DNA of 64,000 nucleotides, taken from contig OX597821.1 in the NCBI GenBank assembly GCA_951406725.2, positions 1,984,001-2,048,000 on the forward strand, read 5' to 3'. A program made the position numbers and the translations under genes. This DNA is from Octopus vulgaris (lineage: Eukaryota). The notes under the pieces were generated by a model. That model did not search any database and had not been told where the DNA came from. It worked only from the letters and a program-made list of their open reading frames with translations. The stretch's first letter is position 1. Each line of letters starts with the position of its first letter. This document shows positions 568 through 62,050 of the stretch, one piece after another.

Positions 568-618
568 AGCCTCTACAGGACTAGAACTGTTTCATTCAGA
601 TGAAATCTTCAGGAAGCT
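568..618 (-). ncRNA. Type I hammerhead ribozyme, canonical core
   Basis: Minus strand: AGCTTC-CTGAAGA-TTTCATCTGAAT-GAAA-CAG(ttctagtc)CTG-TA-GAGGCT. Stem I has 6 bp, stem III is ACAG/CTGT, and the cleavage triplet is GUA. Confidence 0.85.
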
Positions 619-1857
619 GGCTGTCAAAATAAGTTCTGGTATTTATGCATTTAGGCAGATATAATGGGGTGGTGGGGGGACGTTTTTTGGGTAGGTTGGT
701 ATTTAGGAGATAAACAGAGCACAAGCTATTGTTCTTAGGGGAGTGGTCAAAAGGCCAGAGAGTTTTTTGAAAAGAGAAGAATCAGTGAGAAAATAAATAA
801 ATGAATAGACTAAGAGACTATATATTTATGTATGCGTATGTGTATTTATATATACATGTGTATTTGTATATAAATGTATGTGTGTATGCATGTATATTTG
901 TGTATGGATGTAAGCATATATATATATATATATATATATATATATATGGACATGTAGATTTATGTATGTGTATATATATATATGTGTATATGTGTAGATT
1001 TGTATGTACGTGTATGTATGTGTATGTATGTGCATGTGTGTATATGTGTGTATGTATATGCATGTGTGTATTTATATATGCATATATGTATTTATATGCG
1101 TATATATACTTATATATGCGTATTTGTATTTATATGCACATATGGTTTTATATGTGCATATGTGTTTATATATGCGTGTATATATTTATATGTGTGTGTT
1201 TTTGTGTACATATGTATATTTATGTATGTGTTTATATATGCATAATTATGTATATGTTTATATGTACATGGGTATATTTATGTATGTATACTTATGTGTA
1301 TTTGTATGTGTATATATATATATATGTATGCATATATATATATATATGTGTGTGTGTGTATGTAGGTGTATGTATGTATATGTATATGTATGTATATATA
1401 TATATGTGTATGTGTATATATGTATATATGTATGTATGTGTTTGTTTGTATGTATATATATGTGCGTATGTTATGTATACTTGTGTATATTCGCATGTGT
1501 ATGTATGTGTATTTGTAAGTATATTTATTTTATATGTTTTTTTCATGTATATTTATCTATTTATTCCCTCCACCTAACAAAAACACACTGCCTACCTCTT
1601 CTTGACCACCTAAAAGCAATTGTCTTCTATTTTTACCTAAAATCCCATCCCGTACGTCTGTTTCTATTCATTTATTCTATTTATTCATTTATTTATTTTC
1701 TCACTGATTCTTCTCTGGTCTTTTGACCACTCCCCTAAGAACAATAGCGTGTGCCCTGTTTTTTCTCCTAAATACCAACCTACCCAAAAAACGTCCCCCA
1801 CCATCACCCCATTATATCTGCCTAAATGCATAAATACCAGAACTTATTTTGACAGCC

Positions 1858-1908
1858 AGCTTCCTGAAAATTTCATCTGAATGAAACAGTTCTAGTCCTG
1901 TAGAGGCT
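1858..1908 (+). ncRNA. Hammerhead copy with G8->A core mutation (probably inactive)
   Basis: Identical to 568-618 except the core reads CTGAAAA instead of CTGAAGA. Confidence 0.75.
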
Positions 1909-1968
1909 CCTGCTATAAAATAAAAATAAAATATATATATATAATATATATATATATATATATATATA

Positions 1969-2373
1969 GGCGCAGGAGTGGCTGTGTGGTAAGTAGCTTG
2001 CTAACCAACCATATGGTTCTGGGTTCAGTCCCTCTGCGTGGCATCTTGGGCAAGTGTCTTCTGCTATAGCCCCGGGCCGACCAATGCCTTGTGAGTGGAT
2101 TTGGTAGACGGAAACTGAAAGAAGCCTGTCGTATATATGTATATATATATATATGTATACGTGTGTGTGTTTGTGTGTCTGTGTTTGTCCCCCTAGCATT
2201 GCTTGACAACCGATGCTGGTGTGTTTATGTCCCCGTTACTTAGCCGTTCGGCAAAAGAGACCGATAGAATAAGTACTGGGCTTACAAAAGTATAAGTCCC
2301 GGGGTCGAGTTACTCGATTAAAGGCGGTGCTCCAGCATGGCCGCAGTCATATGACTGAAACAAGTAAAAGAGT
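1969..2373 (+). mobile_element. tRNA-derived SINE family A, young full-length copy with internal (TA)n/(TG)n
   Basis: Head GGCGCAGGAGTGGCTGTGTGGTAAG...GGGTTCAGTCC has A/B-box-like motifs and the tail is GAAACAAGTAAAAGAGTA. Near-identical copies lie at 6279, 52780 and 63103. Confidence 0.9.
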
Positions 2374-2839
2374 ATATATATATATATATATATATACATA
2401 TATATATATATATATATATATATACATATATGTATATACATTGATATATATATATATATATATATCTTTATATCTCTATGTATGTGTATGCATGTATATA
2501 TGTACATACACACATACACACACACAAACTCATACACATACATATAGGTTAGCGTGGCTGCGTGGTTAAATATTTGTTTTCTTGCCACATGGTTCCAGGT
2601 TCAGTCCCACAGCGTGGTACCTTCGGCCACTGTCACGTGACTGAATTTGATTGAAGGAAACGGTAAGACGCTCGTCGTATATATATATATATATATATAT
2701 ATAAGAAAATAGTAAAGAGTGAAAAAACGACAGAAGGCTTAAATGTTAAAAAATATATATATATTTGTGTCAAAATGTCTGGAGAATATTGGAAAATTTT
2801 TTTTCCTTTCCTTAAAATGACATAATTTAAAAATTTTTA

Positions 2840-2879
2840 AAGAAATTACCGGTTTCGCGTGTAGCTTTTCAAATTTCTT
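2840..2879 (-). ncRNA. Minimal type I hammerhead, U3-A8 compensatory core variant
   Basis: AAGAAAT-TTGAAAA-GC(TACAC)GC-GAAA-CCGG-TA-ATTTCTT. Stem I has 7 bp, stem III is the palindrome ACCGGT, and the triplet is GUA. Confidence 0.75.
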
Positions 2880-3081
2880 GTGACGTTTCTTGAAAAGTAC
2901 AAACCCAGACTCAACCATCCGAACATACTGACACAGAGAAATTAACAAGGGAAAAGGGAAAAAAATTTCTAAGCGATTATCTCCCTTACACCGGAAGAAA
3001 TCACTCACTACCTCCCCTTATTTAGAAATCTCCTAAAAATGAACACAAAGATAACTCCATGCAATATAAACATAACGTCAC

Positions 3082-3121
3082 AAGAAATTTGAAAAGCTAC
3101 ACGCGAAACCGGTAATTTATT
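3082..3121 (+). ncRNA. Second copy of the U3-A8 hammerhead, one stem I mismatch
   Basis: Same core as 2840-2879; the 3' stem I strand reads ATTTATT. Confidence 0.7.
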
Positions 3122-59268: not shown

Positions 59269-59467
59269 AAGCAATAATAAATCTCTGAACGATATAAACA
59301 GTCACTGCAGGACAATGTGAGGTATACTTGCCATCTCAATATGGCTAACCACTAAGGGTGGGTGTTACTGTGTGCCTAAAGCCAGCTGGAGACGATGTTC
59401 TCCTGGGGCTACAAGCTACAGTAACACCCACCCTTAGTGGTTAGCCATATTGAGATGGCTAGTATAC
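59269..59467. repeat. Tail-out inverted pair (50-bp arms 59322-59371 and 59418-59467) of a repeat also at 21300-21417 and ~36945-36990
   Basis: One mismatch between arms; flanked by (TA)n/(CA)n. Confidence 0.8.
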
Positions 59468-60196
59468 TTTACGTTATATACACACACACACACACACACA
59501 TATATATATATAGATATATATATATAATAATAGTTATCGCCATACTAATATGGCATTCTTATAAAAATAAGAATAAAGCTGACCGCTTATTAGCTCCATG
59601 AGGCCATCGCCTTAAGTTAGCTATTTGATACACAAACTGTATCCATATAACCTTCGAACAAGGGAGACTTAGTAATTTTAATATTTCTATTATATATATA
59701 TATATATGATTGATTGATTCTAGTTTCAGCTTATGAGCTGTGGCCATGCTGGGGCACCGCCATTTTATATATATATATATATATATATATATATATATAT
59801 ATGTATGTATGTATGTATGTATGTATGTATGTATGTATGTATGTATGTATGTATGTATGTATGTATATATATACTCACACTCACACAGAGTTTCTGTCTA
59901 CCACATCCACTTATAAGGTTTTGGTCGAACCGAGGCGACTATAGAAACTGAACCCGGAGCAATGTGGTTGGGAAGCAAGCTTCTTACCACGCATTCATAC
60001 ATTCATGTGTGTATCAGTAGATTAATAGACATACAAACACATGTATAGTTACAAAAGTTTCCTCACACTCCCCCTCCCATTCTCTGTTTGACATTTCACC
60101 TTCATTTCCCTCCACGCTCTGCAGTTTTACTTTCTTAACATAAAATTTTTGTCCTTCGTTGTCACTCTCAATCTCCGCCCGTAAATCTCTTTTTCA

Positions 60197-60482
60197 TAAT
60201 AATAATAATAATAATAATAATAATAATAATAATAATAATAATAATAATAATAATAATGATAATATTAATAATAATAATAATAATAATAATGATAATATTA
60301 ATAATAATAATAATAATAATAATAATAATAATAATAATAATAATAATAATAATAATAATAATTCTTTTTCTTCTTCTTCTTCTTCTTCTTCTTCTTCTTC
60401 TTATTATTATTATTATTATTATTATTATTATTATTATTATTATTATTATTATTATTATTATTATTATTATTATTATTATTAT
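60197..60482. repeat. Compound (AAT)n-(TTC)n-(TAT)n microsatellite
   Basis: Read directly from the sequence. Confidence 0.95.
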
Positions 60483-61169
60483 TCTAATTCTGTTCCTTCT
60501 CAATCTTGTTATTTCCCTTCTGCCCTTCCATTGAATGTAATTCTATGGAATGGCATAATGAAATGAAACACAAAAGTTGTCACATATTAGGTGCCTGCCG
60601 TAATATTACACGTAATTCTATAGACTCAACTGTAAAACCTTTAATGGACGGAGAGTTAAGGTAACATAATTATAATTTCAACTCAGACCAGTTTAGGGAC
60701 ATAAGTAGATTCGGCCATCTCTCGTAAAAGAGCGAAAATAAAATTGAAAGGACTAAAGGAAATAAAAGGAAATACGTTTTAAACTATAATAGGTACAGTG
60801 TAAGAGAGGAATGCAAAGGAAGAGGACCAGGAACAGTAAAGAATATTACAAATTACAAAAAAAAAAAAAAATGAGATTAGTTTCGGAATTTCGTTTGGTT
60901 ATAATAGAGTCAGTGCTTGGTTTGTTTTTATTATATTTCTTAATGCTTTTCTTTTTCCTTTTCTTTTTTTCAAGTCTTTAGTTTCTATTTGTGTTGCAAA
61001 CACGAACCGCAGAATGAAAGACAGGGATGGAGAAAGCAAGCGTAAAAAGTGAAATGTAGATGAGAAGGGGGTAAAAATTTTAGAGCAGGGGAGACAGTAG
61101 GAGGAAGGAAAACGGTGGGTCTTTTCGAAATTCTGGCACCTTCTGGAGAATGCATTACAGAAATTCTTT

Positions 61170-61184
61170 AGAATATTCTAGAAA
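61170..61184. promoter_or_regulatory. Perfect three-unit heat-shock element
   Basis: aGAAtaTTCtaGAAa, with additional GAA/TTC half-sites at 61123-61166. Confidence 0.4.
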
Positions 61185-61575
61185 TGTTGGTTTCCCAACT
61201 GAATTTTACGTTTGTTTCCCAGCTGAATTTTACGTGTGTTAAATGATATTGACCTGTTTTTGTAACCTTCATTTTCTTTCCTACACGATCCCTTCATTAT
61301 ATATTACACGACACAGTTCCGTTTTATATAATGAGAAACAGAGCGTGGAGGAAAATGAAATACGGAAAAGGAAAGAGAAAAGGAAACCTAAAGAAATACG
61401 CAAAATAGTGAGAAAATGGAAATTATGTTACTTTAGAATTATGTATGCATCAGGAAATAAGCAGCATAATATATGTGACTTGTTTTTATTCGTTAGAAGG
61501 AGTATGAGTTGTAGCAATTTTTAGCCTGACTACAAGCAGCTTATTTACAGGAAAAAAAAGTAATTGAATGATCTA

Positions 61576-61588
61576 CAAAATGGCGGCG
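61576..61588 (+). promoter_or_regulatory. YY1 consensus motif
   Basis: CAAAATGGCGGCG, with a GGGCGG at ~61658. Confidence 0.35.
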
Positions 61589-61873
61589 TTTCATTTTTGT
61601 TTTTCAGTCGTGCGCGAATAGGTTGATGAGGTGAAAATGATAGCAAAGTTGATCAGTGGGCGGTGCGCTTGAAACAGTAAAATAATGTATGTAAAAAGCT
61701 CATGATTCGAAGAGATTGATTAAATTCGAGTGATGAATGACTTTTAGGAATATTATGCTTGTTGTTGCCCTACAAATCCTAAATATTAATAAGCATTAGA
61801 ATATATACCTCTATATCGGCGTGTGTGTACACACACATATTCATTAATATATGTTATTCATATATATATGCAT

Positions 61874-62050
61874 TAGCCACTATACATTCTTTATTTTCTT
61901 TCCTTGTTTCTTTCTGTGTTCCTTTCTGTGGAAGAGCGTAGGATCGAAAAGTTAAAGACTTTCACTTCCCGAGCGTTATACTAATACATCTGTTTGTTGT
62001 CTACACCACCTGTCTTCGTCTTTTGTATTTTTTTGTGAATTCTCCCCCCC
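61874..62050 (+). mobile_element. Copy of the 17611 family (HHR-like motif 61922-61957)
   Basis: ctttctgtggaagagcgtaggatcgaaaagttaaag, plus shared flanks. Confidence 0.7.

Follow-up and report, generated by a model that had tools for sequence, protein, structure and literature searches.

Why a single short stretch of an octopus genome should carry hammerhead ribozyme motifs of many unrelated designs is the question raised by the 64,000 nucleotides of Octopus vulgaris DNA considered here (the window), positions 1984001-2048000 of contig C8 (OX597821.1) in a 2.8-Gb assembly of 227 contigs. The window is AT-rich and packed with microsatellites, and no host exon is evident among its open reading frames (ORFs). 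An initial annotation, made from the sequence alone, listed 14 hammerhead sites, sorted them into about ten families and saw in them a large radiation of non-autonomous, retrozyme-like elements that mostly insert at (TA)n. Our analysis indicates that the 14 sites are very probably motifs, or decayed copies of motifs, at the 3' ends of some ten Penelope-like element (PLE) families, whose copies are truncated at their 5' ends and lie mostly beside (TA)n.

Hammerhead motifs and their families

Hammerhead-like sequence is visible at all 14 listed sites. A widened type I descriptor (core, stems I-III, bulges, stem II of up to 120 nt; the strict core requires C3-G8 or U3-A8 and A6) gave 9 strict matches in the window, 10 when U6 was allowed and 11 with the YYGWNRA core, against means of 0.01, 0.02 and 0.06, respectively, in 100 dinucleotide shuffles (200-nt blocks). 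This descriptor had been widened to bulges and a long stem II after the candidates and family alignments had been inspected. The narrower initial descriptor yielded 6 matches with a paired 3-8 core and 8 with YYGWNRA, versus 0.05 and 0.23 in 60 shuffles, and 0-1 matches on the reversed or complemented window. The hammerhead folds that had been read from the sequence are thus real.

Self-comparison of the window and genome searches place the sites in exactly ten families, designated A to J, as the first estimate of about ten had it. Nine of them (A-I) were searched genome-wide, and the 25-30 best loci of each, window copy included, were fetched; first-look candidates numbered 1148 (A), 1447 (B), 2437 (C), 2373 (D), 685 (E), 2761 (F), 1445 (G), 1667 (H) and 1067 (I). 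The initial query for family D was dominated by the neighbouring end of a long interspersed nuclear element (LINE) at 12365-12590 (4373 first-look candidates) and was repeated with a tighter one. For family J, three relatives were met incidentally (L023, L182 and L227). The window copies are the following.

488..806, minus strand: family A (site 568), truncated PLE 3' end with a long tail; intact motif 568-618 with a U10.1.U11.1 mismatch; ends at (TA)n.
1485..1930, plus strand: family A (site 1858), inverted partner with a short 3' end; motif 1858-1908 with G8A (C3.A8 mismatch).
2704..2887, minus strand: family B (site 2840), inverted short copy; intact motif 2840-2879 with a U3-A8 core and palindromic stem III.
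2886..3298, plus strand: family B (site 3082), final 19 codons of a Neptune-like PLE ORF, 3' untranslated region (UTR), motif 3082-3121 with stem I shortened by one change, and long tail.
9607..9643, minus strand: extra candidate K, canonical minimal motif with a 4-nt palindromic stem III.
12182..12365, minus strand: family D (site 12253), end-piece; motif 12253-12298 with a U4C core; no ORF linked.
13409..13557, minus strand: family F (site 13462), tail; damaged motif 13462-13504 with GAAA changed and one stem I base lost.
14113..14245, both strands: remainder of the same family F insertion, with (AAT)n, the minus-strand 3' part of a head resembling transfer RNA (tRNA) and a plus-strand inverted piece from the 5' end of that head.
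17611..17770, plus strand: family C (site 17668), end-piece; motif 17668-17703 with a U6 core.
20699..20918, both strands: family E (site 20738), fold-back; the minus arm has a short end and an intact motif at 20733-20780 (U4C), the plus arm breaks off within the motif and bears a 70-nt tail.
36704..36860, plus strand: family C (site 36762), decayed copy, 82% identical to 17611-17767; fails the descriptor.
41043-41104: second family G piece.
41357..41630, minus strand: family G (site 41460), end-piece; motif 41460-41518 with stem III broken; inverted partner 41559-41630.
41915..42148, minus strand: family H (site 41957), end-piece; intact motif 41957-42043 with a 56-nt stem II (z -3.9) and U4C.
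47751..48219, minus strand: family I (site 47991), end-piece with a long tail; motif 47991-48056 with G8C; inverted partner 48142-48219; no ORF linked.
52450..52690 (approximate), minus strand: family J (site 52495), end-piece; motif 52495-52617 with a 96-nt stem II (z -4.6); no ORF linked.
61874..62047, plus strand: family C (site 61922), copy with a long end, 92% identical to 17620-17770; stems II and III damaged, fails the descriptor.

Candidate K, absent from the initial list, is a plausible eleventh family; it has no relative among the fetched loci, no genome-wide search having been made for it. The degenerate TATG repeat at 820-1485 is likely family A 3' UTR and not a host microsatellite. 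The truncated family D piece adjoins, at 12365-12590 on the plus strand, an abundant LINE's 3' end, whose tail is (TAAC)n-like.

Seven of the 14 sites (568, 2840, 3082, 12253, 20738, 41957 and 52495) pass the strict descriptor. Site 17668 passes only if U6 is allowed and site 1858 only with the C3.A8 mismatch, and five sites fail (13462, 36762, 41460, 47991 and 61922), owing to the mutated GAAA at 13462, the broken stem III at 41460 and G8C at 47991. The tally is therefore seven intact sites, one with a fixed U6 core and six mutated. For the failing sites, the fold is present in other copies of their families, and relatives of the failing copies of families F, G and I have it in full. The type I order of core, GAAA and NUH is found strictly at seven window sites and in other copies of families A, B and D-J, family C departing from it at position 6. 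Every listed site is a minimal type I hammerhead motif or a damaged copy of one.

Chance matches in AT-rich repetitive DNA would explain the five failing sites as well as a further candidate at 35218, which is AT-rich, has a stem II z of +0.5 and was rejected as likely chance. Such an origin for the listed sites is practically negligible in view of 9-11 matches against fewer than 0.1 in shuffles, and of nine searched families that each have 685-2761 first-look candidates and keep the fold in other copies.

Penelope-like elements upstream of the motifs

Seven of the ten families (A, B, C, E, F, G and H) sit 3' of PLE reverse transcriptase (RT) or endonuclease coding sequence, the motif lying 140-1100 nt past the RT/GIY-YIG stop codon. 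The linked RT and GIY-YIG ORF that the initial annotation had proposed to look for is full in B and H, broken in F and partial in A, C, E and G. Of 30 family B loci, 26 have a match to the protein of that family. A 715-amino-acid (aa) open frame in locus L092 has an RVT_1 match (E 2.4e-7), a CxxxxCxxC linker and cysteines inside the GIY-YIG region, and the family B codons in the window are 94.7% identical by tblastn to its aa 697-715. Judged by published motifs, family B appears Neptune-like (PMC8557442). Locus L337 holds an intact family H unit in which a 778-aa frame is flanked by motifs on both sides; its DKT motif and missing CCHH suggest a Hydra-like element. Relatives of family A have a Hydra-like endonuclease 1.06 kb upstream (L040 and L340), those of family C a Neptune-like endonuclease 0.7 kb upstream (L343 and L003). 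A Hydra-like ORF lies 1.1 kb upstream of the family E copy in L347, and in L197 an inverted family G end abuts a truncated frame with a Hydra-like endonuclease. Family F follows a Penelope/Poseidon-type frame, near-full but broken in L450 and with an RVT_1 match of E 3.2e-8 in L448; it is broken in every long copy examined.

Two of these elements deserve a further word. Upstream of its RT frame, the family B PLE (L091:3555-4946 on the minus strand, L093, L092 and L078) has a 463-aa frame with no match in Pfam, the two overlapping at a slippery U-UUU-UUA site; this site is kept in all five frame junctions examined, and the two frames are likely to be joined by a -1 frameshift. Immediately to the right of the window, L347:3441-5900 (G000:C8:2050441-2052900) is a Hydra-like PLE remnant with a family E end, and a further motif type occurs at L347:6081-6125 on the minus strand.

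The geometry of the insertions bears the marks of PLEs, namely 5' truncation, inverted partner, tail and, in L337, the motif-ORF-motif unit. Fold-backs occur in the window in families A, B, E, F, G and I, and those of A, B, E and I combine one short and one long 3' end. In family A, 552-761 pairs in inverted orientation with 1924-1712 (94.8% identity); sites 2840 and 3082 of family B, considered as a direct repeat, also proved to be an inverted pair. Across 260 loci, a second copy within 1.5 kb was inverted in 88, of which 27 are family E loci whose query spanned the fold-back junction, and direct in 6. The 3' end abuts (TA)n in 26/30 copies of A, 26/30 of B, 21/30 of C, 22/30 of D, 27/30 of E, 19/30 of G, 25/25 of H and 22/30 of I. 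Insertion at (TA)n is therefore borne out in eight of the nine families tested (188/235 copies, background 5.9%), but not in family F (3/25). The low rate in this Poseidon-type family, which is without a zinc-finger linker, fits the clade pattern described for PLEs (PMC8557442).

That the families might instead be non-autonomous retrozymes, spreading through self-cleaved circular RNAs, finds support in the lack of a linked ORF in D, I and J, in the non-coding short class of family F, and in a true head-to-tail array elsewhere in the genome. This array (L297/L453, G000:C1:20002272-20004548) consists of seven 359-bp units, two inverted relative to the other five, with a type I motif of canonical size, and is a non-LTR (long terminal repeat) retrozyme array. 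It is the only non-coding head-to-tail tandem met, and it lies outside the window. We consider retrozymes a very unlikely explanation for the window families: seven of ten run into PLE coding sequence, the 5' ends of A, B and H are scattered over 1.5 kb, and the rarity of direct neighbours (6/260 loci, with 88 inverted) speaks against tandem retrozymes. The label 'non-autonomous' must likewise be withdrawn for the seven families that are 3' ends of protein-coding PLEs, whose copies appear short owing to 5' truncation; it does seem apt for the short class of F. A placement at PLE 3' ends is shown for seven families and is likely for D, I and J.

Several observations weigh against this assignment to PLE hammerheads. 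The Rfam hammerhead models fail to match these motifs: the window has no match at gathering score, an E-value scan of it gave only microsatellite matches among the 150 listed of 320, five other loci have no match at gathering score, and an intact family I copy gave no hammerhead match. Stem I or III is weak in family C and candidate K. Core and flanks are conserved to similar degrees in families F (0.94 versus 0.96, 115 copies) and E (0.99 versus 0.96, 56 copies), as expected for copies that decay neutrally, so that selection within a family is visible only in C. No ORF was found within 1.5 kb of 30 copies of D, 30 of I, 3 of J and the single copy of K, and the ORF links of E and G come from one locus each. 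Pfam has no match for the family H protein and no GIY-YIG match for any, GIY-YIG being read from motifs; PDB sequence searches with the B and H proteins returned nothing, and these proteins are only 22% identical to each other. Finally, the clade labels derive from motifs and not from a tree (PMC8557442).

Under the PLE reading, the abundance of motifs would follow from how such elements insert. The element protein would nick the target and begin reverse transcription immediately beyond the motif, at two sites, as in published work, and copying would usually abort early. Motifs would pile up because every insertion, however short, retains one, and the presence of many PLE families over time would supply their variety. 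Neutral decay of single copies would account for the damage in half of the window copies. Cleavage would be weak and would need a dimer or the element protein, a lone truncated copy being inert.

Numbers, variety and activity of the motifs

In a genome sample of 40 stretches of 10 kb (400 kb, at round-number positions on the first 30 contigs), the strict, U6 and loose descriptors gave 19, 22 and 22 matches versus 0.4, 0.6 and 0.7 in 15 shuffles, that is, one motif per 18-25 kb; 7 of the 22 matches belong to the one array of 359-bp units. The density of one motif per 5 kb given initially thus stands for the window and is local, the window being 3-4 times denser than the sample (P 0.003 or 0.0003). 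Extrapolation yields 112,000-154,000 motifs (Poisson range 64,000-233,000), and the genome likely holds about 100,000 copies. The fetched loci contain 360 matches, refetched duplicates included, which form 32 motif clusters, 17 of them singletons of which a few may be chance. With about ten families in the window alone, these clusters agree with the proposed large radiation of retroelements with ribozyme motifs. Stem II measures 40-96 nt in 12 clusters and folds better than shuffles in six of these (H and J plus four more; z -3.1 to -4.7), not in the remaining six. Stem III is perfectly palindromic in 16 of 32; in families A, B, E, H and J it scarcely folds as a hairpin and gives -7 to -13 kcal/mol as a dimer. 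The catalytic letters and the NUH site are kept across the clusters while all stems differ, and the 3-8 pair is C-G with A6 in 27 and U-A in 3, patterns that the descriptor partly imposes.

Family C, among the most abundant (8 pieces in 400 kb), has U6 in all 34 copies found outside its own search. Its core letters are 88-100% fixed, N7 is free (13 C, 8 A, 7 T and 6 G) and H17 is never G; judged from this alignment, the U6 core still varies as that of a hammerhead does. U3-A8 and U10.1.U11.1 are known natural variants, and A6C is known as weak or Mn-dependent (PMC3088659; PMC7151607). A6U is absent from those passages of the position-6 literature that a whole-word search matched.

Self-cleavage of these motifs is predicted, and the folds might alternatively be kept as protein-binding or packaging signals that no longer cleave in vivo. 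The fixed U6 of so abundant a family would fit such a role, as activity is low when position 6 is changed (PMC3088659; PMC7151607). So would the findings that catalytic mutants still insert in vitro, cleavage being dispensable there, and that no RNA ends were seen at the cut site in anole (PMC11167929). In that work, the hammerhead belonging to a Poseidon protein cleaved only with the protein. The catalytic letters, 3-8 pair and NUH kept across 32 clusters with entirely different stems (in part the descriptor's doing) and the cut site of family C, which is never G, argue the other way, and we regard the loss of cleavage as a tentative alternative, on the unlikely side.

Minimal hammerheads in the pseudo-LTRs of metazoan PLEs have been described by Cervera and de la Peña (2014; PMC4209133), who found that they cleave weakly and as dimers, and this class is also described in other work (PMC8557442; PMC6765202; PMC6155905; PMC7229834; PMC8490949; bioRxiv 10.64898/2026.07.22.740005). 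The octopus motifs resemble those of PMC4209133 in their type I order, short stem I, extra base after A9, palindromic stem III and U3-A8 variant. Also shared are the large number of unrelated families in one genome, the predominance of single truncated copies, and the opposite-strand pairs 100-700 bp apart. They differ in the extrapolated number of about 1e5, compared with about 2,000-9,000 in that report (with different descriptors), in the 40-96-nt stem II of 12/32 clusters, in the abundant fixed U6 core and in the U4C core of three families (D, E and H). With the endonuclease-bearing (EN+) PLE clades Neptune/Nematis, Hydra and Penelope/Poseidon (Craig et al., 2021; PMC8557442), they share the order of RT and GIY-YIG, 5' truncation, inverted partner, tail, and the (TA)n bias of linker-bearing and Hydra families. 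Tails of at least 44-70 nt, the upstream frame of family B reached through a -1 slippery site, the tRNA-like module in the 3' UTR of family F and the lack of a CxCX5C linker in family H set them apart from that account. Non-LTR retrozymes (PMC7229834; bioRxiv 10.64898/2026.07.22.740005) also have PLE-tied type I motifs, and one array of this kind lies outside the window; the window families, in contrast, are single or inverted and mostly run into coding sequence.

That an animal genome holds many hammerhead families is thus a known pattern, of which the window is mostly an extreme case. An octopus repeat annotation reports 31 recently active PLE families, the word 'ribozyme' being absent from the available part of its text (PMC13282606), and a squid genome paper counts 235 Rfam hammerheads (PMC6962438). 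Relative to the main texts found, supplementary motif lists aside, what is new is the scale, the 32 clusters, the 12 with a 40-96-nt stem II, the abundant U6 family and family F.

The tRNA-like head of family F

The 3' UTR of family F runs from the stop codon through about 45 nt to the tRNA-like head with its A and B boxes, then (AAT)n, 60 nt and the motif. A 26-mer from the head has 2577 exact matches in the genome (control 0). For 70 fetched matches (the first listed, all on contig C1), 5' ends were mapped against a long natural copy; two of the 70 are arms of one insertion, and one without homology upstream of the anchor was retained. The tail is present in 57 and an inverted partner in 40. 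Forty-five copies end at -8..+7 of the head start, 15 inside the head and 10 farther up, 5 of these in the ORF. Per nt, ends occur at 7.6% in -8..+7, 1.0% inside the head and 0.3% beyond -30, in zones picked after the data were seen. The A box is exact in 32/70 and has at most one mismatch in 48/70; both boxes are found in 40/70, the search anchor overlapping the B box start. They are separated by a 33-nt spacer in 38/40, and the A box begins 7-14 nt past the 5' ends.

The short class accordingly shows features by which short interspersed nuclear elements (SINEs) are recognized: A and B boxes placed as in SINE promoters (by the rule, 30-35 nt apart and 10-15 nt from the 5' end), a defined 5' end and a high copy number. 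It shares its 3' end with a coding partner, for in long copies this head and tail come after the Poseidon-type stop codon, and this partner is a PLE and not a LINE. The reading of family F as simply a SINE that ends in a PLE tail was dropped, since its long copies run into the PLE ORF. Four contig sets placed on an F copy showed roughly tenfold more summed depth from the head on, also in a run that is probably DNA; this was not counted because contig depth measures neither copy number nor expression.

Sequence features such as these suggest that RNA polymerase III (Pol III) probably makes a 330-nt RNA from the family F head, which the Poseidon-type protein would copy far more often than the full element; transcription from the captured head would supply a short RNA with a recognized 3' end. 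Alternatively, the short copies may reflect a hot spot of truncation and fold-back at a small hairpin overlapping the head start. Locally, 35 nt fold at about -7 kcal/mol; fold-back joins through the hairpin account for the nine ends at -7 and for several more, and 15 of the 70 ends lie inside the head. The head itself aligns only weakly to positions 8-63 of the Rfam tRNA model RF00005 (10.8 bits, E 9.7), ARAGORN finds no tRNA in the window or in 24 family F loci, and Pol III transcription is predicted from sequence. Against the hairpin, the ends cluster where RT has already passed the motif and the whole tRNA-like fold (7.6% versus 1.0% and 0.3% per nt), and the box spacing fits the SINE promoter rule (PMC8969392). 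Moreover, a TTTT Pol III stop lies between head and tail in only 6/55 copies, and no comparable box pair occurs upstream of the 13 other commonest motif types. The hairpin hot spot is for us a possible but rather unlikely origin of the short class.

We therefore lean, by a modest degree, towards the view that a Penelope/Poseidon element acquired, in its 3' UTR, a Pol III promoter of tRNA type. The resulting 330-nt hammerhead RNA would be copied about 10 times more often than the full element, as a SINE born inside its own host, in a genome with about 100,000 motifs of at least 30 designs, including long stems II and U6 cores. The closest likeness is to the schistosome SM-alpha SINE-like repeats, in which a Pol III promoter and a hammerhead are also combined in a short repeat; SM-alpha, however, acts from tandem arrays and has no coding partner named in the available text (PMC6765202), whereas family F is dispersed in PLE-type fold-backs and its long form is the coding partner. 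A Poseidon protein is reported to initiate reverse transcription at two internal positions, which set the tail (PMC11167929), and retrozymes, it has been proposed, may rely on PLEs and may be called SINEs (PMC8969392). Literature searches, with Repbase and Dfam entries outside their scope, returned no described tRNA SINE with a PLE partner.

The window copy of family F is split by a LINE piece at 13570-14110, inserted in its (AAT)n and separating the tail (13409..13557) from the head part (14113..14245). The piece is 88% identical to a broken LINE at 54915-57600 (minus strand), which has RT, zinc-finger and restriction-like endonuclease motifs (RVT_1 E 1.4e-9) and lies among (TAT)n runs; from these motifs, we take both to be of the R4/Dong-like clade. 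Similar pieces occur in the (AAT)n of further F copies (L250, L253, L263 and L271). Elsewhere, the window has many copies of two dispersed, abundant repeat types, about 400 bp and 184 bp in length and presumably SINE-like (1969-2372, 6271-6692, 52777-53183 and 63104-63517; 25098-25667). A 103-aa frame at 32159-32470 (minus strand), in a non-repetitive stretch, is possibly a retroelement remnant.

The likely record density and variety of motifs amount to a natural mutational screen of the hammerhead core. The abundant U6 family allows the need of PLEs for cleavage to be tested, and motifs with a long stem II escape short descriptors and Rfam, so that published counts probably underestimate their number. 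By definition, SINEs parasitize LINEs. In family F, long coding and short promoter-bearing forms occur in one lineage, which makes the proposed PLE route for SINE-like and retrozyme elements directly testable, and if the reading given here is true, family F would link a tRNA SINE directly with its PLE partner.

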